A DNA stretch of 64,000 nucleotides, from contig OZ024741.1 in assembly GCA_964016885.1 (NCBI GenBank), positions 127,534,001 to 127,598,000 on the forward strand. The letters are read 5' to 3'. The position numbers were made by a program, and so were the translations under genes. Shown here piece by piece: positions 2,300-64,000 of this stretch; the first letter of the stretch is position 1, and every line of letters starts with the position of its first letter. The stretch comes from Eledone cirrhosa (lineage: Eukaryota). A model generated the notes under the pieces. That model worked only from the letters and a program-made list of their open reading frames with translations. It was not told the DNA's origin and did not search any database.

Positions 2300-5200
2300 C
2301 CTATGAACTAATCCGACCTCCAAAATGCTTGCAATTAACTATTTTTTTTAGCATATTAACAACAAATATGATTTCCACTACAATTAAAAATGACTAGCTT
2401 TGTGAATGGTTTTTCCATCCACTTTCTGCCTTCATTTTTCTACAAAGCTAATCCTTGATGATAGGTTTCAAAGTTATATTCATTCATAATATGTGAAAAA
2501 AAATAGTCAATTGCGAGCATTGGTGTGATGTAAATGGTAGGAGGAGGTGTTCTGTAATAAATTTACCATTGGGTGAAGTATATGGTGTGGATTGGGTAGA
2601 TTTTTTCCTTCACTTTTGCATGTGCTATCAAATAATACAACTTTCAAGATGCTTGCAGTGGACTATGCTTTTAGCATATTAACAAAAAATATGACTTCCG
2701 CTGCAATAAAAAATGACTAGCTTTGTAAATGGTATTTCCACCCACATCCTCCCTCTTTTTTCTACAAAGCTAGTCATTTTCATCAGGTTTCCATGTCATA
2801 ACCATTGATAATATGTGCATAAAATAGTAATTTGTGAGTACCATTTATGTCAAATTGGATTGTAAGCAGGGAAAAAAAAAAAAAAAAAAAAAAAAAAAAT
2901 GCCAAATGTAAATTTGTCACACCAAAATCAATAGCTTGGTGCGATGTACTATGGTGTGGTTTGGTGAAGTTTCTACAAAGAGTCATTTTCGACAGGTTTC
3001 CATGTCATAATTATTGATAAGTGGAAAAAAAATAGTCAATTGGGAGCACCTTTAATGTCAGATTGGGGGGTAAGCACACACAAAAAAAAAAAAGAAAACG
3101 GGAAGAAAATGTTTCACACCAAGATCAATAGCTTGGTGCGATGTAGTATGGTGTAACTTGGTATGGTGTGGTTTGGTTTGGTGAAGTTATGAAATGGAAA
3201 CCAATTCTAAACGATAGATTCCCATGTCATATTCATTGATGTGTGAAAATAGTAATTTGCAAGCACCTTTGATGTTAGTTTGGGTGGTAACCACAAAAAA
3301 AACAAAAAAACAAAGCAGGTAGCAAATTTGTCACATTGATGTCCATACCATGGTGTGATGTAAATGATAGGAGTAGGTATTCTGTAATAAATTTACCATA
3401 ATATGGTGTTGTTTGATAAAGTGTGGTTTGGGGTAGATTAATGTGGTGTGGTGTGCTTTGTTATAAGTAAGGAATTAAATTTCCACTTTGATTTATATCA
3501 GAAAAAATTTTTTTCCTTCACTTTTGCATGTGCTATCAACTAATACAACTTTCAAGATGCTTGCAGTGGACTATGCTTTTAGCATATTAACAAAAAATAT
3601 GACTTCCGCTGCAATAAAAAATGACTAGCTTTGTAAATGGTATTTCCACCCACATCCTCCCTCTTTTTTCTACAAAGCTAGTCATTTTCATCAGGTTTCC
3701 ATGTCATAACCATTGATAATATGTGCATAAAATAGTAATTTGTGAGTACCATTTATGTCAAATTGGATTGTAAGCAGAAAAAAAAAAAAAAAATGCCAAA
3801 TGAAAATTTGTCACACCAAAATCAATAGCTTGGTGGGATGTGGTGAAGTTTCTACAAAGAGTCATTTTCGACAGGTTTCCATGTCATAATTATTGATAAG
3901 TGGAAAAAAAATAGTCAATTGGGAGCACCTTTAATGTCAGATTGGGGGGTAAGCACACACACACACAAAAAAAAAAAAAAGGAAATGGGAAGAAAATGTT
4001 TCACACCAAGATCAATAGCTTGGTGTGATGTAGTATGGTGTAACTTGGTATGGTGTGGTTTGGTTTGGTGAAGTTATGAAATGGAAACCAATTGTAAACG
4101 ATAGATTCCCATGTCATATTCATTGATAATGTGTGGGGAAATAGTCATTTGCAAGCACCTTTGATGTTAGTTTGAGGTGGTAACCAGAAAAAAAAAAAAA
4201 AGCAGGAGGTGTTTTGTAATAAATTTACCATATAGTGAAGTATGGTTATGGTGTGGATTGGGGTAGATTAATGTGCTGTGGTGTGCTTTGTTATAAGTGA
4301 GGATTTAAATTTCCACTTTGATTTATGTTATAAAAAAATGTTTCCTTCATTTTTGCATGTGCTATCAACTTCCAAGAAGCTCGCAGTGGACTATGCTTTT
4401 AGCATATTAACAAAAAATATGACTTCCGCTGCAATAAAAAATGGCTAGCTTTGTAAATGGTATTTCCACCCACATCCTCCCTCTTTTTTCTACAAAGCTA
4501 GTCATTTTCATCAGGTTTCCATGTCATATCCATTGATAATATGTGCATAAAATAGTAATTTGTGAGCACCATTTATGTCAAATTGGATTGTAAGCAGGAA
4601 AAAAAAAAAAAATGCCAAATGTAAATTTGTCACACCAAAATCAATAGCTTGGTGTGATGTAGTATGGTGTGGTTTGGTGAAGTTTTTACAAAGAGTCATT
4701 TTCGACAGGTTTCCATGTCATAATTATTGATAAGTGGAAAAAAAATAGTCAATTGGGAGCACCTTTAATGTCAGATTGGGGGGTAAGCACACACAAAAAA
4801 AAAAGAAAACGGGAAGAAAATGTTTCACACCAAGATCAATAGCTTGGTGTGATGTAGTATGGTGTAACTTGGTATGGTGTGGTTTGGTTTGGTGAAGTTA
4901 TGAAATGGAAACCAATTGTAAACGATAGATTCCCATGTCATATTCATTGATAATGTGTGGGGAAATAGTCATTTGCAAGCACCTTTGATGTTAGTTTGAG
5001 GTGGTAACCAGAAAAAAAAAAAAAAGCAGGAGGTGTTTTGTAATAAATTTACCATATAGTGAAGTATGGTTATGGTGTGGATTGGGGTAGATTAATGTGC
5101 TGTGGTGTGCTTTGTTATAAGTGAGGATTTAAATTTCCACTTTGATTTATGTTATAAAAAAATGTTTCCTTCATTTTTGCATGTGCTATCAACTTCCAAG

Positions 5201-8200
5201 AAGCTCGCAGTGGACTATGCTTTTAGCATATTAACAAAAAATATGACTTCCGCTGCAATAAAAAATGGCTAGCTTTGTAAATGGTATTTCCACCCACATC
5301 CTCCCTCTTTTTTCTACAAAGCTAGTCATTTTCATCAGGTTTCCATGTCATATCCATTGATAATATGTGCATAAAATAGTAATTTGTGAGCACCATTTAT
5401 GTCAAATTGGATTGTAAGCAGGAAAAAAAAAAAAATGCCAAATGTAAATTTGTCACACCAAAATCAATAGCTTGGTGTGATGTACTATGGTGTGGTTTGG
5501 TGAAGTTTCTACAAAGAGTCATTTTCGACAGGTTTCCATGTCATAATTATTGATAAGTGGAAAAAAAATAGTCAATTGGGAGCACCTTTAATGTCAGATT
5601 GGGGGGTAAGCACACACAAAAAAAAAAAGAAAACGGGAAGAAAATGTTTCACACCAAGATCAATAGCTTGGTGCGATGTAGTATGGTGTAACTTGGTATG
5701 GTGTGGTTTGGTTTGGTGAAGTTATGAAATGGAAACCAATTCTAAACGATAGATTCCCATGTCATATTCATTGATGTGTGAAAATAGTAATTTGCAAGCA
5801 CCTTTGATGTTAGTTTGGGTGGTAACCACAAAAAAAAACAAAAAAACAAAGCAGGTAGCAAATTTGTCACATTGATGTCCATACCATGGTGTGATGTAAA
5901 TGATAGGAGTAGGTATTCTGTAATAAATTTACCATAATATGGTGTTGTTTGATAAAGTGTGGTTTGGGGTAGATTAATGTGGTGTGGTGTGCTTTGTTAT
6001 AAGTAAGGAATTAAATTTCTACTTTGATTTATATCAGAAAAAATTTTTTTCCTTCACTTTTGCATGTGCTATCAACTAATACAACTTTCAAGATGCTTGC
6101 AGTGGAATATGCTTTTAGCATATTAACAAAAAATATGACTTCCGCTGCAATAAAAAATGACTAGCTTTGTAAATGGTATTTCCACCCACATCCTCCCTCT
6201 TTTTTCTACAAAGCTAGTCATTTTCATCAGGTTTCCATGTCATAACCATTGATAATATGTGCATAAAATAGTAATTTGTGAGTACCATTTATGTCAAATT
6301 GGATTGTAAGCAGAAAAAAAAAAAAAAAATGCCAAATGAAAATTTGTCACACCAAAATCAATAGCTTGGTGGGATGTGGTGAAGTTTCTACAAAGATAGT
6401 CATTTTCGACAGGTTTCCATGTCATAATTATTGATAAGTGGAAAAAAAATAGTCAATTGGGAGCACCTTTAATGTCAGATTGGGGGGTAAGCACACACAC
6501 ACACAAAAAAAAAAAAGGAAATGGGAAGAAAATGTTTCACACCAAGATCAATAGCTTGGTGTGATGTAGTATGGTGTAACTTGGTATGGTGTGGTTTGGT
6601 TTGGTGAAGTTATGAAATGGAAACCAATTGTAAACGATAGATTCCCATGTCATATTCATTGATAATGTGTGGGGAAATAGTCATTTGCAAGCACCTTTGA
6701 TGTTAGTTTGAGGTGGTAACCAGAAAAAAAAAAAAAGCAGGAGGTGTTTTGTAATAAATTTACCATATAGTGAAGTATGGTTATGGTGTGGATTGGGGTA
6801 GATTAATGTGCTGTGGTGTGCTTTGTTATAAGTGAGGATTTAAATTTCCACTTTGATTTATGTTAGAAAAAAATTTTTCCTTCATTTTTGCATGTGTTAT
6901 CAACTTCCAAGAAGCTCGCAGTGGACTATGCTTTTAGCATATTAACAAAAAATATGACTTCCGCTGCAATAAAAAATGGCTAGCTTTGTAAATGGTATTT
7001 CCACCCACATCCTCCCTCTTTTTTCTACAAAGCTAGTCATTTTCATCAGGTTTCCATGTCATATCCATTGATAATATGTGCATAAAATAGTAATTTGTGA
7101 GCACCATTTATGTCAAATTGGATTGTAAGCAGGGAAAAAAAAAAAAAATGCCAAATGAAAATTTGTCACACCAAAATCAATAGCTTGGTGTGATGTAGTA
7201 TGGTGTGGTTTGGTGAAGTTTCTACAAAGAGTCATTTTCGACAGGTTTCCATGTCATAATTATTGATAAGTGGAAAAAAAATAGTCAATTGGGAGCACCT
7301 TTAATGTCAGATTGGGGGGTAAGCACACACAAAAAAAAAAAGAAAACGGGAAGAAAATGTTTCACACCAAGATCAATAGCTTGGTGCGATGTAGTATGGT
7401 GTAACTTGGTATGGTGTGGTTTGGTTTGGTGAAGTTATGAAATGGAAACCAATTCTAAACGATAGATTCCCATGTCATATTCATTGATGTGTGAAAATAG
7501 TAATTTGCAAGCACCTTTGATGTTAGTTTGGGTGGTAACCACAAAAAAAACAAAAAAACAAAGCAGGTAGCAAATTTGTCACATTGATGTCCATACCATG
7601 GTGTGATGTAAATGATAGGAGTAGGTATTCTGTAATAAATTTACCATAATATGGTGTTGTTTGATAAAGTGTGGTTTGGGGTAGATTAATGTGGTGTGGT
7701 GTGCTTTGTTATAAGTAAGGAATTAAATTTCCACTTTGATTTATATCAGAAAAAATTTTTTTTCTTCACTTTTGCATGTGCTATCAACTAATACAACTTT
7801 CAAGATGCTTGCAGTGGACTATGCTTTTAGCATATTAACAAAAAATATGACTTCCGCTGCAATAAAAAATGGCTAGCTTTGTAAATGGTATTTCCACCCA
7901 CATCCTCCCTCTTTTTTCTACAAAGCTAGTCATTTTCATCAGGTTTCCTTGTCATATCCATTGATAATATGTGCATAAAATAGTAATTTGTGAGCACCAT
8001 TTATGTCAAATTGGATTGTAAGCAGGAAAAAAAAAAAATGCCAAATGTAAATTTGTCACACCAAAATCAATAGCTTGGTGTGATGTACTATGGTGTGGTT
8101 TGGTGAAGTTTTTACAAAGAGTCATTTTCGACAGGTTTCCATGCCATAATTATTGATAAGTGGAAAAAATAGTCAATTGGGAGCACCTTTAATGTCAGAT

Positions 8201-9330
8201 TGGGGGGTAAGCACACACAAAAAAAAAAAAAGAAAACGGGAAGAAAATGTTTCACACCAAGATCAATAGCTTGGTGCGATGTAGTATGGTGTAACTTGGA
8301 TGGTGTGGTTTGGTTTAGTTTGGTGAAGTTATGCAATGGAAACCAATTGTAAACGATAGATTCCCATGTCATATTCATTGATAATGTGTGGGGAAAATAG
8401 TCATTTGCAAGCACCTTTCATGTTAGTTTGAGGTGGTAAGCAGAAAAAAAAAAAAAGCAGGTAGCAAATTTGTCAAATTGATGTCCATACCATAGTGTAA
8501 TGTAAATGGTAGGAGTAGGTGTTTTGTAATAAATTTACCATATAGTGAAGTATGGTTATGGTGTGGATTGGGGTAGATTATTATGCTTTGTTATAAGTGA
8601 GGATTTAAATTTCCACTTTGATTTATGTTAGAAAAAAATTTTTTCCTTCATTTTTGCATGTGCTATCAACTTCCAAGATGCTCGCAGTGGACTATGCTTT
8701 TAGCATATTAACAAAAAATATGACTTCTGCTGCAATAAAAAATGACTAGCTTTGTAAATGGTATTTCCACCCACATCCTCCCTCTTTTTTTCTACAAAGC
8801 TAGTCATTTTCGACAGTTTTCCATGTCATAATTATTGATAGTATGTGCGAAAAATAGTCAATTGCAGCACCTTTGATGTCAGATTGGGTGGTAAGAACAC
8901 AAAAAAAAAAAAAAAGAAACAGGAAGAAAATTTTTCAGAGATCAAAAGCATGGTGTAATGTAGAATGGTATAGTTTGTTATGGTGTGGTTTGGATTGTTG
9001 TAGTTATGACATGGGAACCTATTGTAAATGATAGGTTTCCATGTTATATACATTGATAATGTGTAAAAAAATAGTCATTTGTGAGCACCTTTGATATCAG
9101 ATTGGGTGGTAAGCACACACACAGAAAAGAAAAACAGGAAGAAAAATGTTCTCACTGAGATTAGTAGCATGGTGTGATGTAGTATGGTGTAGTTTGTTAT
9201 GGTGTAGTTTGGTATGGTTTAGTTTGGTGTAGTTATAACATGGAAACCTATCATAAATTTACCAAGGTATGGTATAATCTGGTTTGGTGTAGTGTAGGTT
9301 AGTGTGGTGTGGTGTGTTATTGTGTTGGAT
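2300..9330. repeat. Macrosatellite, ~8 units of 819-908 bp with internal ~200-bp subrepeats
   Basis: Marker gtggactatgcttttagcatattaac at 2658, 3566, 4386, 5210, 6102, 6921, 7814, 8687. Confidence 0.95.
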
Positions 9331-17319: not shown

Positions 17320-20300
17320 TTTAAAACCTTCTCCTCGCTCGCTAACTACCCCATACCCCTCCCGCCCGCCCCCACTCTCCACCATTATTATTTGGACCAA
17401 TCATAAGTCAGCGGCCTATGCTATCACTTCTGGTTGCTTTTCGATATGATGGATGGACTAAGGAATTCTGGAGAGTCTGAAGAATCTGGACACTCAGAGA
17501 CAATGCCAAAGATAACGACAAATTCACCTCATGCTGCCAGACGAAAGGGCAAGGACACCTCTTTGTTTCGGCCGCGGATGGCCAACATAACTCCAACCCC
17601 ATCCCCCTCACCGCGCCCCACCCACCAAACGCAATCCAAAACTTCAGAGTTGGTACCATGAATGTAGGCACCTTAAAAGGTCACTCGAACAAGGTTGTAG
17701 AAATGCTTGAACGTAAGGAGGTTGATGTTTGCTGTATCCAAGAGACCAGATGGAGGGGCGGGTCTGCTAGATTCATTGTGGGTAAAAAACGATGCTATAA
17801 GCTTTTCTGGGTGGGAAATGACAATGGGCTGGGTGGGGTAGGAGTCATGTTAGCAGAAAAATGGGTGGATAAGATAATAGACGAAAATAGAGTGAACAAC
17901 AGAATAATTAAAATAAGACTTGTTCTAAATAGAACTACTATGACAATAATATCTGCATACGCACCCCAATCCGGACTGCCTGGCGCTATAAAAGACAGAT
18001 TCTATGAGACACTGATGCTCACTACCTCCCAAATAACTGACAGTGACTATATAATTATTGCTGGCGACCTAAATGGTCATGTTGGACAACATTGTGACGG
18101 CTATGACGGAATCCATGGAGGCTATGGGTTTGGTACTAGAAATGAGGAAGGCTCCAGAATCCTGGAATTCTGTGACGCAAATAACCTAACAATCTGTAAC
18201 ACTAACTTCAAAAAGCAAGACAATCACTTGATCACCAATAGATCAGGGGAACACGCCAGTCAGATAGATTATATCTTTACCAGAAGACGTGATAGAGTGT
18301 CTGTTGTAAACACTAAATCCTTCCCCCATGAAGAATGCATCTCCCAACATAGACTCATAATTAGCGACCTCATAGTCAGGACGAGACGTTCTCGACAACA
18401 GAAGAGGACTATCCTCAGGAGAAAAATATGGAAGCTAAAGGACCCCACAATCAGTAATAAATTTAAAAGCATATTACTTGATGCTTTCGACAGTAAGGAA
18501 GAGCAATTAGAGTCGTACAATATAGAGGATCAGTAGGAATTCCTCAAAGCAAACTTGCTGATGGCGACAGATGAAGTCTGTGGCTGGAGCAGGCCTATAG
18601 GCAGGAGGAGAGTAATGTGGTGGTGGAACAGTAAGGTGGAGGAGTCAATTAAGGCCAAAAAGCAGGCTTGGAAAGTATGGTGGGATGGGGGGAAGTAGAG
18701 AAGACTATCAAGTGGCCAGGAGGGAAGCTAGGAGACAAGTGTACTTCGCAAGAAGGGAAGCAGAAGAAAGAAAGTTCAAGCATGTTCTATAACGCGAGGA
18801 CCAAAAACGTGAGGTGTTCAGGATTACTTGGCAATGTGTCAAGGAAAACCGTGATATTGTCGGGGAGAAGTGTGTCCTTAATGATGATGTACTTGCCATC
18901 ACTGACGCTGATAAGAAGGTAGCTTGGAAGTGTCACTACGAAAGGCTACTAAATGAGGAGAATAAATGGGAGAAAGACAGTCTCCCCCACATCGATCCAA
19001 TAGAGGGACCATCAGTGCTAGTTGAAGGTAGTATAATAAGTAAGGCAATCAAAGATATGAAGACGGGTAAGGTGGCTGGGCCTTCGGAAATAGTTGCTGA
19101 AATGCTGAAAGCATCTGGAACGGTGGGACACACTATGGTCACCCGTATAGTAAACCAAGTCATACAGAATGGGGTCGTTCCGAAGGACTGGCGTAGCAAC
19201 ATCATCATTAACTGCTACAAGGGTAAAGGAGATGCCCTATATATGGGTAACTATAGAGGCATTAAATTAATCGACCAGGTCATGAAGGTCACAGAAAAAG
19301 TAATAGTGCAACTAATCAGAGAGCGAATTGATCTAGATGAAATGCAGTTCGGGTTTGTGTCAGGTAAAAGTACCACATACGCTCTTTTCATTGTACGACA
19401 ACTACAGGAGAAGTACCTAGCTAAAAGTAACTATTTATTATTGCCCTTCAGGCTATAACAGTGGAGTTCAAGACCGGCTGCCCATGGGAACTCCTATACG
19501 CAGATGATCTAACACTCATAGCTGAATCAATGGCTGAACTAGAGAAAAAATTCCAAACATGGAAGCATGGCCTAGAATCAAAAGGCCTTAAAATTAACCT
19601 GTCTAAGACTAAAGTTCTAGTTTGTAGGAAGGAAAATAGGGCACCGGTCCCATCCGGGAAATGGCCATGCTCAGTGTGTAGGAAAGGAGTAGGCAGAAAC
19701 TCCATTTTATGTCCCAAATGCAAAGTATGGGTGCATAAAAGATGTAGTGGGATCACAGGTAAGCTAACTAAGAATATAGATTTTACATGTGGCCGGTGCT
19801 CTGGTGCAATAAGTAGCAGCAAGTGCCCACAGAATACTAGCTCATTCCATTGCACAGATGATTCTATAGAAATAGTGGACAGCTTCCGTTACTTGGGAGA
19901 CAAAATCAGCAGTGGTGGAGAGTGCTCTGAAAGTACTGTAGCTAGAGTCAGAACTGGATGGAAAAAGTTCACTATTAGCCGCTAAAGGGTTCTCTCTAAA
20001 AATGAAAGGCAAGCTGTATGATGCCTGCATAGGAACAGCAATGTTACATGGCAGTGAGACCTGGGCATTGTGTGCAGAGGATATACGCAGACTGAGAGGA
20101 ACGAAGCTTGCATGCTCCGCTGGATGTGTAATAGTAATATACGTGAACGGCAAAGCATAAACGAACTAAGGGAAAAATTAGAAATAACAGGGATCAGATG
20201 TTGTTTACTCGAGAGAAGACTACGTTGGTACGGTCACGTGATGCGCATGAAAGATGACAGCTGTATAAAAAAGTGCAAGGCAATAAAAATAGACGGTAGC

Positions 20301-20797
20301 CACGGACTAGGCAGACCCAGAAAAACCTGGGACGACTTGATAAATTCCGACCTCACACACACCTCTCCAAGACAATGTCACTGGACCGAGATCTTTGGCG
20401 CTACACAGTAATACAGAAGACCCGCCTTACCTAAGTACAAAGTGAAACCTACCACAGTCAGTAGGCACCTCTAACAAAAATACACCACCATCCCACCCCA
20501 TCCACACCACCCCTTTCAATGTAAAGTTATGTTGGTACCACAACATCCAGTCCGAAACAAATGAGGTCGTGTAGGTGTCACGACAAAAAAAACACACAGT
20601 CCACGCTGTAATGTGGCCGTGTAGGCAACATGATAAAAACCTCCCAGTCCACACTGTAAACGTGGTTGGTGTTAGGAAGGGCATCCAGCCGTAGAAAACC
20701 CGCCAGACAGTCCTATGCAAGCAAGACAACCACTCTTGCCTCAAGTGGGAAAACTCCCGTCCAAACCCATGCAAGCATTAAACGACGATGATGATGA
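17320..20797 (+). mobile_element. Near full-length RTE-clade LINE (APE endonuclease + RT + PHD-like finger), disrupted; ~0.22-kb deletion in RT near 19430
   Basis: MNVGTL, IQETRW, SAYAPQ, GDLNGHVG, IDY (APE); NYRGIKL, QFGF, LYADD (RT); RRLRWYGHV, GRPRKTW; (GAT)n tail. 5' boundary approximate. Confidence 0.93.
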
Positions 20798-20799
20798 TA

Positions 20800-21490: not shown

Positions 21491-24331
21491 TATGGTTTTA
21501 TAAATATAGTTTCCATTTGTTAATATCGTATTTTTACTCCAATTATTTGTTGAGTGCTTTATATCAGTTATAAAAATATTTGCTTGTTGTATCCCAACAA
21601 CTTAAATAGAACTTTTACATATATTCTGCTCCTGTATTGTCGAGCGCTTTATATTATAACTGAAAAATGGAATACTTTAAGATCTCTTCTCTAAAGGACA
21701 TACCTTTACCTAGGAATAAAGATTTTATGAAACAATTAATAGAAAAATCAGACTCTTAGAAGAATCAGGTGGCGTGCTTTCCACTTTGATAAATCTAATC
21801 TAAATGAAAATGTCTCCAATCTGGATAAAATCTTCAAATCTAAAAAAAATCCACCCCACAACAAACTAGTAATGGATTTTGAAAATGAAATCTATCATCC
21901 AAAGCATCAAATTCAAAAACAACTTCAAAGGCCAGGATTACTTAAGAAATATTAAAAATAATATTGAAAACTTGGAGAAAACGGAGAAAATTCTAGTCAA
22001 GTCTGACAAAACCAATAATCTTTACGGAATACAAAAGGATATTTATAACGATCTTATATTAAAGGAATTAAGGAAGAAATACAAAGTAGCAAATAATGAC
22101 GACCTTGAAAAATTGAATACAGATGCCTCTTATATAATGCATGAACTAGGCATTGAAAATAAGACAACCCTTCATGCCAAGGAAACCTAAAATTAATATG
22201 AAGGATCACAAAAGGAACTTTGAAACTGATTTACCAGTCAGATTAATTGCACCATCTAAATCGGACCTTGGCAGACTTAGCAAAAATATTTTAGACAAAA
22301 TAATACCACAAATTAAGAATTTATCTTATTTAAAATTATGGAAAGGAACTAGTGAAGTTATCGATTGGTTTAAGGGAATTAAATATAACTATAATAATAA
22401 GTTTATTCAGTTGGATATTGCTAACTATTACTCATCTATCACTCCTAATCTACTGAATAAAGCACTAACTTACGCATTTAAACATACAGACTTAACTAGC
22501 AATGAAATGCACATTATATTATCGGCACGGAAAACATTAATAGAATTTAATAACCAACTCTGGATTAGGGCAGATAGAAATAATAACTTTGATATAACTA
22601 TGGGATCATCCGATTCCGCTCAGGTAACGGATCTTGTGGGCCTCTTTATAAATAATTCTCTACATAAGAAAATACCTGAGATAACCGGAGGTTTATATCG
22701 TGACGACATGCTTTTACTCATAGAAAATAATAACTGAACTAAATAGGAAAAGAAAACAAATTATACAATTCTTTAATTACCTTAATCTAAAAGTAGAAAT
22801 AGAGAATAACCATAAAATAGTTAACTTTCTAGATGTAACACTAAACCTTAACAGGTCTTCATTATCCATTTCACAAACTAAATGAGAACTTAAACTACGT
22901 CAATTTTAACTCTAATCACCCCAGATCCGTTAAAAATACTATAGTGAACTCTGTACAGCAACGCATTCCGAGAATTTCAGCTAATAAGAATATATTTGAT
23001 GAAAAAGCACATTATTACAACGAAGCGTTAGGTAGAGCTGGGTATAGAAATAAAATTAAATACATTGATAATAATAATATAACAACTAACCATAATCTTA
23101 ACAATTTTAACAACTATAATAGAAAACCTTACAATAATTCCGAAAACAAAAAAAGAAATAGAACTAGGAATATATTATGGTTCGCTCCTCCTTTCTCATT
23201 AAATATTAAAACCCCTATTGCTAAACTATTTTTTAAAGCTCTTGACAAATGCTTCCCTAGAACACATAGATATTAATCAATTTTTAATAGACATACTATA
23301 AAATTAACTTATTCTTCCACCAAAAATTTAGCGCAAAATATTAATAGAATTAATAATAGAAATTTAAAACCTAACCAAAATACCGCTAATAACCAATTTG
23401 ATAAATGTAACTGTAGAAATAAATCTAACTGTCCGTTAAAAAACAATTGCTTAGCTACAAATATAGTATATAATTGTAATGTAAAAACTAATTTAAATTC
23501 ATTTAATTATGTGGGATCCACTTCCACAGAGTTTAAATCCCGTTTCAATAATCATAAAAATTCTTTTACGAATCCAAACAAAAAATCTTCAACTACTCTA
23601 TCTAGCTTATTATGGGACCTCAAACTAAAGAACGTTGAATATTCGTTGATTTGGAATATTATTTCAAAAGCTACTCCTTTTAACTCCTCCTCAGAAAATT
23701 GTGATCTTTGTATAGAGGAAATATTCTTTATATTAAAGACCAAAAATTCCCTGAACCTAAGGAACAATTTATTCAGTTGCTGTAGACATAGATTGAACTC
23801 AACGTTTAAATATAAATTTAAAATGTAATATATAATTAATTAATTAATTCTATTAATATATTGAACCTATCGATAAATCATTAGATTCCTTCATTTTTTG
23901 ACTGCTTATACTCTCAAGTAAACAAACTTTTCTTCCTAAATATAAATAAATATAATAAACTCCTCTAGAGAAATATACCGAAAGCTCTTAAAAGGGGAAA
24001 ATATTTTTTTGATAGTTTCTCCTATTTTCGAAAGTTTCTCTTTTGAAAGTTTCTCTTTTGAAAGTTTCTTTTTCTTTCTCTTATTGATATAAAATTAAGT
24101 TAAATATACGTAGAAAATTTTTATACTAAATTTATTAAACATATTATTATTTAAAAATTATAACTTGAAATATTCTATAATATTTTTAAAGTTATATTGA
24201 TTTAAAGTTATATTGCTTATAATTATATTTCCAAATCGTAATATAATTCTTTTGTATTTTATGTACTTCAATTATACTAAGTACTGTATTTATATATCTA
24301 TTTATCTATCTATATGTGTTGTTATATATGT

Positions 24332-28542: not shown

Positions 28543-57188
<28,646 letters not shown>

Positions 57189-57604: not shown

Positions 57605-60600
57605 TGGTAGTGCTGGTTCTACTACAAAATACACCCAGCCTACTCTATAATGTGGTAGTGCCGGTTCTACTACAAAATACACCCAGCCCACTCTATAATG
57701 TGGTCGTGCTGGTTCTACTACAAAATACACCCAGCCCACTCTGTAATATGGTAATGCTGGTTCTACCACAAAATACACTCAGCCCACTCTATAATGTGGT
57801 AGTGCTTGTTCTACTACAAAATACACTCAGCCCACTCTATAATGTGGTAGTGCTGGTTCTACTACAAAATACACCTAGCACACTATAATGTGGTAGTGCC
57901 GGTTTAACTACAAAATACACTCAGCCCACTCTATAATGTGGTAGTGCCGGTTCTACTACAAAATACACTCAGCCCACTCTATAATGTGGTAGTGCTGATT
58001 CTACCACAAAATACACCCAGCCCACTCTATAATGTGGTAGTGCTGGTTCTACTACAAAATACACCTAGCTCACTATAATGTGGTAGTGCCGATTCTACTA
58101 CAAAATACACTCAGCCCACTCTAAAATGTGGTAGTGCTGGTTCTACCACAAAATACACCCAACCCACTCTATAATGTGGTAGTGCTGGTTCTACCACAAA
58201 ATACACCCAACCCACTCTATAATGTGGTAATGCTGGTTCTACTACAAAATACACTCAGCCCACTCTATAATGTGGTAGTGCTGGTTCTACCACAAAATAC
58301 ATTCAGCCCACTCTATAATGTGCTGGTTCTACCACAAAATACACTCAGCCCACTCTATAATGTGGTAGTGCTGGTTCTACAACAAAATACACCCAACCCA
58401 CTCTATAATGTGGTCGTGCTGGTTCTACTACAAAATACACCCAGCCCACTCTGTAATATGGTAATGCTGGTTCTACCACAAAATACACTCAGCCCACTCT
58501 ATAATGTGGTAGTGCTTGTTCTACTACAAAATACACTCAGCCCACTCTATAATGTGGTAGTGCTGGTTCTACTACAAAATACACCTAGCACACTATAATG
58601 TGGTAGTGCCGGTTCTACTACAAAATACACTCAGCCCACTCTATAATGTGGTAGTGCCGGTTCTACTACAAAATACACTCAGCCGACTCTATAATGTGGT
58701 AGTGCTGATTCTACCACAAAATACACCCAGCCCACTCTATAATGTGGTAGTGCTGGTTCTACTACAAAATACACCTAGCTCACTATAATGTGGTAGTGCC
58801 GATTCTACTACAAAATACACTCAGCCCACTCTAAAATGTGGTAGTGCTGGTTCTACCACAAAATACACCCAACCCACTCTATAATGTGGTAGTGCTGGTT
58901 CTACCACAAAATACACCCAACCCACTCTATAATGTGGTAATGCTGGTTCTACTACAAAATACACTCAGCCCACTCTATAATGTGGTAGTGCTGGTTCTAC
59001 CACAAAATACATTCAGCCCACTCTATAATGTGCTGGTTCTACCACAAAATACACTCAGCCCACTCTATAATGTGGTAGTGCTGGTTCTACAACAAAATAC
59101 ACCCAACCCACTCTATAATGTGGTAGTGCTGGTTCTACCACAAAATACACTCAGCCCACTCTATAATGTGGTAGTGCTGGTTCTACAACAAAATACACCC
59201 AACCCACTCTATAATGTGGTAGTGCTGGTTCTACCACAAAATACACCCAACCCTCTCTATAATGTGGTAGTGCTGGTTCTACTACAAAATACACCCAGCC
59301 CACTCTATAATGTGGTAGTGCTGGTTCTACTACAAAATACACCTAGCCCACTCTATAATGTGGTAGTGCCGGTTCTATTACAAAATACACTCAGCCCATT
59401 CTATAATGTGGTAGTGCTGGTTCTACTACAAAATACACCCAGCCCACTCTATAATGTGGTAGTGCTGGTTCTACTACAAAATACACCTAGCCCACTCTAT
59501 AATGTGGTAGAGCTGGTTCTACTACAAAATACACCCAGCCCACTCTATAATGTGGTAGAGCTGGTTCTACTACAAAATACACCCAGCCCACTCTATAATG
59601 TGGTAGTGCTGGTTCTACTACAAAATACACCCAGCCCACTCTGTAATGTGGTAATGCTGGTTCTACCACAAAATACACTCAGCCCACTCTATAATGTGGT
59701 AGAGCTGGTTCTACTACAAAATACACCTAGCCCACTCTATAATGTGGTAGTGCTGGTTCTACTACAAAATACACTCAGCCCACTCTATAATGCTGGTTCT
59801 ACTACAAAATACACCCAGCCCACTCTATAATGTGGTAGAGCTCGTTCTACTACAAAATACACCCAGCCCACTCTATAATGTGGTAGTGCTGGTTCTACTA
59901 CAAAATACACCCAGCCCACTCTGTAATGTGGTAATGCTGGTTCTACCACAAAATACACTCAGCCCACTCTATAATGTGGTAGAGCTGGTTCTACTACAAA
60001 ATACACCCAGCCCACTCTATAATGTGGTAATGCTGGTTCTACTACAAAATACACCTAGCCCACTGTATAATGTGGTAGTGCTGGTTCTACCACAAAATAC
60101 ACCCAGCCCACTCTATAATGTGGTAATGCTGGTTCACTACAAAATACACTCAGCCCACTCTATAATGTGGTAGTGCTGGTTCTACCACAAAATACACCTA
60201 GGCCACTCTATAATGTGGTAATGCTGGTTCTACTACAAAATAGACCCAGCCCACTCTGTAATGTGGTAATGCTGGTTCTACTACAAAATACACTCAGCCC
60301 ACTCTGTAATGTAGTAATGCTGGTTCTACTACAAAATACACCCAGCCCACTCTATAATGTGGTAATGGTGGTTCTACCATAAAATACAGCCAGCCCACTC
60401 TATAATGTGGTAATGCTGGTTCTACCACAAAATACACCCAGCCAACTCGATGATGTGGTAATGCTGGTTCTACCACAAAATACACCCAGCCCACTCTATA
60501 ATGTGGTAGTGTTGGTTCTACGACAAAATACACTCAGCCCACTCTATAATGTGGTAGTTTTGGTTCTGCTACAAAATACACTCAGCCCACTCTATAATGT

Positions 60601-63600
60601 GGTAATGCTGGTTCTACTACAAAATACACCCAGCCCACTCTGTAATGTGGTAATGCTGGTTCAACTACAAAATACACCCAGCCCACTCTGTAATGTAGTA
60701 ATGCTGGTTCTACTACAAAATACACTCAGCCCACTCTATGATGTGGTAATGCTGGTTCTCCTACAAAATACACCCAGCCCACTCTATAATGTGGTAATGC
60801 TGGTTCTACTACAAGATACACCCAGCAAACTCTATAATGTGGTAATGCTGGTTCTACTACAAAATACACCCAGCCCATTCTATAATGAGGTAGTGTTGGT
60901 TCTACTACAAAATACACTCAGCCCACTCTATAATGAGGTAGTGTTGGTTCTACTACAAAATACACCCAGCCCACTATAATGCGGTAATGCTGGTTCTACT
61001 ACAAAATACACTCAGCCCACTCTATAATGTGGCAGTGCTGGTTCTACTACAAAATACACTCAGCCCATTCTATAATGAGGTAATGCTGGTTCTACTACAA
61101 AATACACCCAGCCCATTCTATAATGAGGTAGTGTTGGTTCTACTACAAAATACACCCAGCCCACTCTATAATGTGGTAATGCTGGTTCTACTACAAAATA
61201 CACTCAGCCCACTCTATAATGTGGCAGTGCTGGTTCTACTACAAAATACACTCAGCCCACTCTATAATGTGGTAATGCTGGTTCTACTACAAAATACACC
61301 TAGCCCACTCTATAATGTGGTCGTGCTGGTTCTACTACAAAATACACCCAGCCCACTCTATAATGTAGTAATGCTGGTTCTACTACAAAATACACCTAGC
61401 CCACTCTACAATGTGGTCGTGCTGGTTCTACTACAAAATACACCCAGCCCACTCTATAATGTGGTAATGCTGGTTCTACTACAAAATACACCTAGCCCAC
61501 TCTATAATGTGGTCGAGCTGGTTCTACTACAAAATACACCCAGCCCACTCTATAATGTGGTAATACTGGTTCTACTACAAAATACACCTAGCCCACTCTA
61601 TAATGTGGTCGTGCTGGTTCTACTACAAAATACACCCAGCCCACTCTATAATGTGGCCGTGCTGGTTCTACTACAAAATACACCTAGCCCACTCTATAAT
61701 GTGGTAGTGCTGGTTCTACTACAAAATACATTCAGCCCACTCTATAATGTGGTAATGCTGGTTCTACTACAAAATACACTCAGCCCACTCTATAATGTGG
61801 TAATGCTCGTTCTACTACAAAATACACTCAGCCCACTCTATAATGTGGTAGTGCTGGTTCTACTACAAAATACACTCAGCCCACTCTATAATGTGGTAAT
61901 GCTTGTTCTGCCACAAAATACACCCAGACCACTACAATGTGGTAATGCTGGTTCTACCACAAAATACACTCAGCCCACTCTATAATGTGGTAGTGCTGGT
62001 TCTACCACAAAATACACTCAGCCCACTCTATAATGTGGTAGTGCTGGTTCTACCACAAAATACACCCAACCCACTCTATAATGTGGTAGTGCTGGTTCTA
62101 CTACAAAATACACCCAACTCACTCTATAATGTGGTAGTGCTGGTTCTACTACAAAATACACTCAGCCCACTCTATAATGTGGTAGTGCTGGTTCTACTAC
62201 AAAATACACCTAGCACACTCTATAATGTGGTAGTGCCGGTTCTACTACAAAATACACTCAGCCCACTCTATAACGTGGTAGTGCTGATTCTACCACAAAA
62301 TACACCTAGCCCATTCTATAATGTGGTAGTGCCGGTTCTACTGCAAAATACACCCAGCCCACTCTATAATGTGGTAGTGCTAGTTCTACTACAAAATACA
62401 CCTAGCCCACTCTATAATGTGGTAGTGCCGATTCTACTACAAAATACACTCAGCCCACTCTATAATGTGGTAGTGCTGGTTCTACCACAAAATACACCCA
62501 ACCCACTCTATAATGTGGTAGTGCTGGTTCTACCACAAAATACACCCAGCCCACTCTAGAATGTGGTAGTGCTGGTTCTACCACAAAATACACCCAGCCC
62601 ACTCTATAATGTAGTGCTGGTTCTACCACAAAATACACTCAGCCCACTCTATAATGTGGTAGAGCTGGTTCTACTACAAAATACACCTAGCCCACTCTAT
62701 AATGTGGTAGTGCTGGTTCTACTACAAAATACACTCAGCCCACTCTATAATGTGGTAGTGCTGGTTCTACTACAAAATACACCCAGCCCACTCTATAATG
62801 TGGTAATGCTGCTTCTACTACAAAATACACCTAGCCCACTGTATAATGTGGTAGTGCTGGTTCTACCACAAAATACACCTAGCCCACTCTATAATGTGGT
62901 AATGCTGGTTGTACTACAAAATAGACCCAGCCCACTCTGTAATGTGGTAATGCTGGTTCAACTACAAAATACACCCAGCCCACTCTGTAATGTAGTAATG
63001 CTGGTTCTACTACAAAATACACCCAGCCCACTCTATAATGTGGTAATGGTGGTTCTACCATAAAATACACCCAGCCCACTCTATAAAGTGGTAATGCTGG
63101 TTCTACCACAAAATACACCCAGCCAACTCGATGATGTGGTAATGCTGGTTCTACCACAAAATACACCCAGCCCACTCTATAATGTGGTAGTGCTGGTTCT
63201 ACTACAAAAAACACCCAGCCCACTCTATAATTTGGTAATGCTGGTTCTACTACAAAATACAATCAGCCCACTCTATAATGTGGTAGTGTTGGTTCTACGA
63301 CAACATACACTCAGCCCACTCTATAATGTGGTAGTTTTGGTTCTGCTACAAAATACACTCAGCCCACTCTATAATGTGGTAATGCTGGTTCTACTACAAA
63401 ATACACCCAGCCCACTCTGTAATGTGGTAATGCTGGTTCAACTACAAAATACACCCAGCCCACTCTGTAACGTAGTAATGCTGGTTCTACTACAAAATAC
63501 ACTCAGCCCACTCTATGATGTGGTAATGCTGGTTCTCCTACAAAATACACCCAGCCCACTCTATAATGCGGTAATGCTGGTTCTACTACAAAATACACCC

Positions 63601-64000
63601 AGCCCATTCTATAATGAGGTAGTGTTGGTTCTACTACAAAATACACTCAGCCCACTCTATAATGAGGTAGTGTTGGTTCTGCTACAAAATACACCCAGCC
63701 CACTCTATAATGTGGTAATGCTGGTTCTACTATAAAATACACTCAGCCCACTCTATAATGTGGCAGTGCTGGTTCTACTACAAAATACACTCAGCCCACT
63801 CTATAATGTGGTAATGCTGGTTCTACTACAAAATACACCTAGCCCACTCTATAATGTGGTCGTGCTGGTTCTACTACAAAATACACCCAGCCCACTCTAT
63901 AATGTGGTCGTGCTGGTTCTACTACAAAATACACCTAGCCCACTCTATAATGTGGTAGTGCTGGTTCTACTACAAAATACATTCAGCCCACTCAATAATG
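57605..64000. repeat. Homogeneous 48-bp minisatellite TGTGGTAGTGCTGGTTCTACTACAAAATACACCCAGCCCACTCTATAA, ~130 copies, runs off the window end
   Basis: Period 48; the 16-aa VVVLVLLQNTPSPLYN repeats in the ORF track reflect it. Confidence 0.99.

Follow-up and report, generated by a model that had tools for sequence, protein, structure and literature searches.

How can two LINE copies that differ at several per cent of their positions agree perfectly over one stretch of more than 200 bp, and why should that stretch carry both a stop codon and a frameshift? The question arises in a 64,000-nucleotide stretch of Eledone cirrhosa DNA (assembly GCA_964016885.1, contig OZ024741.1, positions 127,534,001 to 127,598,000 of the forward strand; hereafter, the window), in which two inverted copies of one LINE family lie 19 kb apart. 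The host genome measures 3.0 Gb and holds thousands of copies of this family. The first-pass annotation of the window left three readings of the shared block: a conserved recoding cassette or bicistronic arrangement of the endonuclease (EN) together with the reverse transcriptase (RT), recent local gene conversion, or an artefact of assembly polishing. Features and their coordinates are collected in Table 1.

Table 1 Features of the window that bear on the shared block (positions of the window; counterparts lie in copy 2).
Feature	Position	Strand	Remarks
Copy 1	17329..20798	+	Near-full-length LINE of the older subfamily (EN, RT, PHD, GAT-repeat tail); likely donor
Copy 1 EN frame	17481..18536	+	351 aa stop to stop; terminates at the TAG
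Tract, donor side	18518..18687	+	Putative; minimal extent, 170 bp; outer bounds 18483-18764, at most 18794
TAG codon	18534..18536	+	Nonsense mutation at a family Trp codon (EEQW); counterpart 37820-37818
G6 run	18687..18692	+	One G more than most copies, frameshift; counterpart 37667-37662
DDX23/Prp28 helicase gene	28544..57050	+	Ends approximate; orientation marker
Copy 2	35283..38562	-	LINE of the young subfamily, its 5' end truncated within EN; lies in a DDX23 intron, antisense; likely recipient
Copy 2 RT + PHD frame	35675..37669	-	664 aa; starts at an ATG put in frame by the extra G
Tract in copy 2	37667..37836	-	Putative; minimal extent; outer bounds 37590-37871; 7 old-type and 7 minority alleles; internal difference at 37824
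Third copy of the family	39951..41459	-	Older 3' fragment, 82% identity

Pairwise alignment of copy 1 (17792-20798, +) with copy 2 (38562-35283, -) gave mismatches in 183 of 3,006 columns (6.1%), together with 12 indels. The longest perfect match between them is 234 bp (18531-18764, equivalent to 37823-37590), the runner-up being 71 bp, and a single mismatch (T18530/A37824) falls within 18483-18764; the identity first noticed by eye is thus confirmed, and the TAG codon and G6 run were found in both copies where they had been placed. The copies differ clearly outside the block, as had also been noted, but the eye estimate of 8-10% proved slightly high, with flank divergence measured at 41/529 (7.8%) on the left and 48/657 (7.3%) on the right. 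When the differences between the two copies were placed at random, 3 of 100,000 trials gave a run of at least 234 bp. This makes the block look more exceptional than it is, since identical runs of at least 200 bp are held by 26 of 2,578 distant pairs of family members (at least 3.5% divergence), the family being a mosaic. Within a 1,470-bp segment, the longest run in 1,247 comparisons of an old with a young copy was 209 bp, short of 234 bp. Runs among distant pairs weaken run length alone as proof of transfer, and the decisive signal is instead the subfamily switch and the rare alleles that the two copies have in common.

The native design of the family is one continuous EN-RT frame. Pfam identified endonuclease (PF03372/PF14529) and RT (PF00078) domains, while three of the five scanned proteins gave no match, and a PHD finger (PF00628, above the cut-off) lies directly behind the RT domain in the single frame (36330-36460 on the - strand of the window). 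A single frame with an AP endonuclease and RT, ending in a short tandem-repeat 3' tail, is of the RTE type, and the family presumably belongs to the RTE clade, as the first-pass annotation had it. GAT repeats form the 3' end of both window copies and of 17 of 20 young loci, the other three having no tail or anchor. The frame is open across EN, linker and RT in 23/29 young copies versus 3/43 older copies. Since 12 of the 20 young loci retrieved over their whole length (L091-L110) have more than 1,000 aa open, and a young-type motif occurs at 876 places, the family has been recently active. Most of these young copies also carry a ~127-bp tandem duplication near the 3' end, in the 3' UTR, which copy 2, L097 and L106 lack, and young copies vary in their 5' regions as well. 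Eleven further loci (L143, L145-L147, L149, L150, L153, L154, L162, L163 and L171) represent intermediate or mosaic sub-lineages that combine old and young diagnostic alleles.

Against this background, the possibility that UAG editing or readthrough, followed by slippage or re-initiation at the G6 run, gates retrotransposition has next to no chance of being correct. The TAG does occupy the position of a conserved Trp, and a real ATG precedes the RT frame of copy 2, whose 664 residues from MGGSREDY were verified (687 aa stop to stop, with the Met as residue 24). However, an exact 22-base motif has TGG at 2,947 places in the genome and TAG at 23, both window copies included, and TAG followed by G6 occurs at three loci only, of which two are copies 1 and 2 and the third lies on another chromosome without the remaining rare alleles. 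We also aligned 72 other copies, comprising 43 unique loci (60 less 3 self-matches and 14 duplicates) and a further 29 (30 less self); in this sample, which is non-random because its members were selected for similarity to one or other of the two window copies, TGG is present in 70/72 and a G run of normal length in 68/72. TAG is no commoner here than at other Trp codons (3/72 at 18585 and 2/72 at 18678), and it was found at the linker Trp in none of the 29 young copies.

The two copies themselves are no better suited to such a scheme. After readthrough of the TAG, the EN frame hits a second stop 54 codons on, just past the G6 run, and the A of the UAG is predicted to be unpaired locally (pairing probability 0.08). 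The frame that opens at MGGSREDY in copy 1 stops after 34 residues, and the RT of that copy is disrupted by a stop at 18790 and by deletions of 223 bp at 19430 and 14 bp at 19970; copy 2 starts inside EN and lacks its 5' part. A two-part unit is therefore workable in neither copy. In copy 2, the ATG ahead of the RT frame belongs to normal Asp-Gly codons that any G6 copy brings into frame, and an unrelated G6 copy (L111) has the same upstream frame as copy 2. The signal is not conserved among active members, and recoding would yield a full product from neither copy. Because nearly all other copies are without both mutations, the patch is not a built-in recoding switch; the family counts rule out the proposed cassette, and with it goes the claim of editing-gated retrotransposition. 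Lesions common to two nearby copies are not in themselves evidence of conservation.

The ancestry of the two copies tells a different story. The 40 best matches to copy 2 EN are 99-100% identical to it, and the best matches to the copy 1 linker region reach 95-96%. Of 50 sites that tell the subfamilies apart, copy 1 has the old-type state at 48. Copy 2 has the young-type state at 43 of them, and its 7 old-type sites follow one another without interruption (18518-18617); counted along the entire element, 116/126 diagnostic sites in copy 2 are young-type. Old-type states make up 15 of 1,428 diagnostic cells in the 29 other young copies, where the longest old-type run is 2. Copy 2 diverges from young copies by 1.0% to the left of the tract, 5.2% inside it and 1.7% to the right. 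Within the tract, copies 1 and 2 have seven minority alleles in common: A18535 (2/72 other copies), C18545 (1/72), T18555 (3/72), the G6 run (3/72), A18567 (12/72), T18616 (13/72) and T18681 (7/72). No third 100% match to the block appeared among those 40 of the 2,511 candidates that were scored. One distant old copy (L004, contig C1, 392.5 Mb) has the TAG, C18545 and the old sub-lineage alleles of copy 1, without T18555 or G6, and so TAG and C18545 may be older than copy 1 and mark a small lineage, or their co-occurrence may be due to chance; the direction of transfer is unchanged by these alleles.

Taken together, these data favour the view that the 170-280 bp patch passed from copy 1 to copy 2 by gene conversion, in one direction and without crossover, a reading to which we assign a probability of roughly four in five. 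Seven old-type sites and the minority alleles of copy 1, lying inside a young element, set the direction from old to young, which the first-pass annotation had left unspecified in proposing local conversion. The switch to donor-type alleles is bounded, with young-type flanks on both sides, and the donor is identified by rare alleles, four of them present in 1-3 of 72 other copies. The exchange also appears non-reciprocal, since the flanks were not exchanged and copy 1 retains its old type. The third copy in the window was considered as a donor and rejected because the fragment ends short of the linker.

In the sequence of events that we envisage, the TAG and the extra G would have been ordinary decay mutations already present in copy 1. 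After both copies had inserted, a break or gap in copy 2 would have been repaired, without crossover, by synthesis templated on copy 1, which lies at a distance of 19 kb along the chromosome and is ~94% identical. The difference at 18530, which is private to copy 1, could reflect a later mutation or patchy mismatch repair. No function is predicted for the patch, which would have split the remaining frame of an element already short of its 5' end. Two clustered pairs of private substitutions lie 3' of the tract in copy 2 (37519-37518 and 37285-37283) and could be due to error-prone repair synthesis or chance. We regard the whole as a known process in a new instance, an ordinary cause for a real feature.

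Three other routes to the same pattern deserve consideration. The patch might have formed during insertion, if the nascent cDNA or the reverse transcriptase of copy 2 switched to copy 1, as DNA or RNA, and back. Gilbert et al. 2005 reportedly observed chimeras with nearby resident L1s. The age of the tract is consistent with that of the insertion (one difference in 170-282 bp, against 1.3-3.7 expected if the tract were as old as the insertion; P = 0.12-0.63), and the 5' end of copy 2 is truncated. A search for a target-site duplication around it found none, and the 5' flank does not belong to a common repeat. RNA template switching during L1 insertion is also described in the text of PMC11702581. 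However, this route requires two in-register switches, and a clear duplication is likewise missing from several young copies. Nascent DDX23 RNA was rejected as a template because the probable start codon of DDX23 comes only after a further ~8 kb downstream of copy 1, which is thus probably outside that pre-mRNA. Patches between two old copies elsewhere (L201/L202) point to a process acting after insertion, and overall we consider an insertion-coupled origin unlikely.

An assembly or polishing error that pasted copy 1 sequence into copy 2 seems to us a slim prospect. A read check limited to 37520-37960 of copy 2, at 100% likeness in 4 of 23 runs, showed no read or contig spanning a tract junction, as would suit such an error. 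Contigs of runs X1 and X3 lack a 100% piece over 37792-37819, which is weak evidence, as contigs drop rare variants and these samples may be unrelated to the assembly. The depth bins of raw run X21, taken from a different sample, are consistent with a single 113-bp fragment (37704-37816) bearing the rare alleles of the block, which suggests that the block haplotype exists as DNA, whichever copy the fragment came from. Stray reads should, moreover, stem from young copies, of which at least 876 are ~99% alike, rather than from a neighbour at 94%; the tract has an internal difference, as does that of another pair (L159/L160); and patches of this kind are seen in other pairs 17-33 kb apart, direct as well as inverted. 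Descent of both copies from one recombinant or defective source, or an inversion crossover at the block, is practically negligible. L004 does hold two of the rare alleles and the family is mosaic, but to either side of the tract the two copies are of different subfamilies, which excludes common descent and crossover alike. Both flanks retain their own ancestry and the DDX23 coding pieces between and beyond the copies (near 28.7, 31.3, 32.3, 35.05, 48.0, 49.0, 51.3, 52.0, 52.8, 55.0 and 57.0 kb) are all on the + strand, including across the copy 2 side, so that neither a crossover nor an inversion took place between the copies.

Gene conversion between neighbours may have left traces at other loci of the family. 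Neighbouring pairs were taken on contig C1 from the first 100 matches listed in three motif searches. A linker motif nominated 22 other pairs, of which 17 were scored (set 1; five were dropped for giving no alignment or <3.5% divergence), and an RT motif nominated 24, of which 23 were scored (set 2). The pair test scores minority alleles that both members have within a near-identical 100-bp interval, in pairs that have none in common outside it. With three such alleles, 2/40 neighbouring pairs passed versus 7/5,581 distant pairs; with two, the counts were 5/40 versus 62/5,581. The associated P values (0.002 and 0.0001) are only indicative because pairs share members.

The clearest case pairs the young L160 with its old neighbour L159, 17 kb away (C1, 2.06 and 2.08 Mb), which have 13 consecutive departures in common over 104 bp with one internal mismatch; by inspection, conversion from L159 to L160 appears as clear as that from copy 1 to copy 2. 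Likely conversion tracts are also seen in L161/L162 (32 kb apart; 4 common departures over 30 bp) and L152/L153 (33 kb, inverted; a common 202-bp run with one allele exclusive to these two copies). L201/L202 have 10 common alleles absent from every other copy aligned and may reflect conversion or a partial duplication; L205/L206 and L207/L208 are weaker candidates from set 2, and L169/L170 look like a duplicated segment. The four pairs with rare-allele tracts lie 8-33 kb apart, in direct and inverted orientation. Three set 1 tracts fall within ~520 bp of the linker; no linker hotspot is claimed, because set 1 was picked by a linker motif and set 2 candidates lie mostly in RT.

Whether such copying amounts to frequent overwriting of LINEs by decayed neighbours genome-wide, affecting about a tenth of pairs no more than 45 kb apart, acting over 17-33 kb and carrying lesions from old to young copies, is a tentative proposition that we think rather doubtful. 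None of the 13 young-old pairs scored in set 2 showed a tract, which counts against a high rate. If it were true, dead elements would poison young arrivals nearby, beyond the range known for Alu, and if the rate held genome-wide, insertion dating based on divergence would be biased and young copies would have a passive route to inactivation. With recoding set aside, the two copies offer a clean and directional example of probable conversion between transposons, matched by a few replicates, in a genome that holds thousands of copies of a recently active single-ORF LINE family.

Several other features of the window were recorded. Copy 2 ends ~100 bp downstream of the DDX23 exon at 35.05-35.19 kb, to which it is antisense, and a short sense 3' fragment at 39599-39759 could base-pair with copy 2 in the DDX23 pre-mRNA. 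Two frames at 22150-23828 (+) resemble those of a Penelope-like element, one for RT and one for a GIY-YIG endonuclease; a Pfam scan of these frames gave no match at E 0.001. The window also contains a tandem duplication at 4201-9257 (4.2-9.3 kb) and a long minisatellite array at 57605-64000 (unit ~48 bp, ~91% alike) that continues past its end.

Among known systems, hepatitis delta virus has an amber/W editing site, which the block resembles in having UAG at a Trp position and in nothing more; most family members lack the UAG, no duplex is predicted around it, and both a frameshift and a further stop lie downstream. Among the titles listed in a search, no report of conversion between cephalopod LINE copies was found, although supplements and subscription journals could hold one. 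Recently active RTE families have been reported in an article whose main text never uses the word conversion (PMC13282606). Octopus RTE LINEs such as RTE-2_OV are described in the text of PMC9115989 as having a single frame and microsatellite ends. Our family is similar in its one EN + RT frame of ~1,000-1,100 aa, its zinc-binding module and its microsatellite 3' end, a likeness of architecture; unlike that of RTE-2_OV, the module scores as PHD and sits just behind the RT domain.

For the process itself, the nearest parallels come from Alu and L1. Conversion between neighbouring Alus includes changes of identity from young to old and declines with distance over ~10 kb (Kass 1995, Roy 2000, and Aleshin and Zhi 2010; summaries in PMC8230782 and PMC6598467). 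The present case is similar in its partial switch of subfamily-diagnostic alleles, in the non-diagnostic mutations held in common, and in the 89-100% identity window and distance dependence described there. It differs in that the element is a LINE in an invertebrate-type genome, that the patch bears coding lesions, and that conversion is read from paralogues and not from orthologous loci. The separation of 19 kb (17-33 kb in other pairs) also exceeds the ~10-kb range reported for Alu, which counts against conversion. Endogenous L1s can serve as the source when a broken chromosomal L1 is mended by conversion (Tremblay et al. 2000, as cited in PMC3924843), and the transfer proposed here would likewise be a one-way, LINE-to-LINE copy into a damaged element; in that system, however, the break was engineered and active L1 donors were favoured, whereas the probable donor here is a decayed near neighbour.
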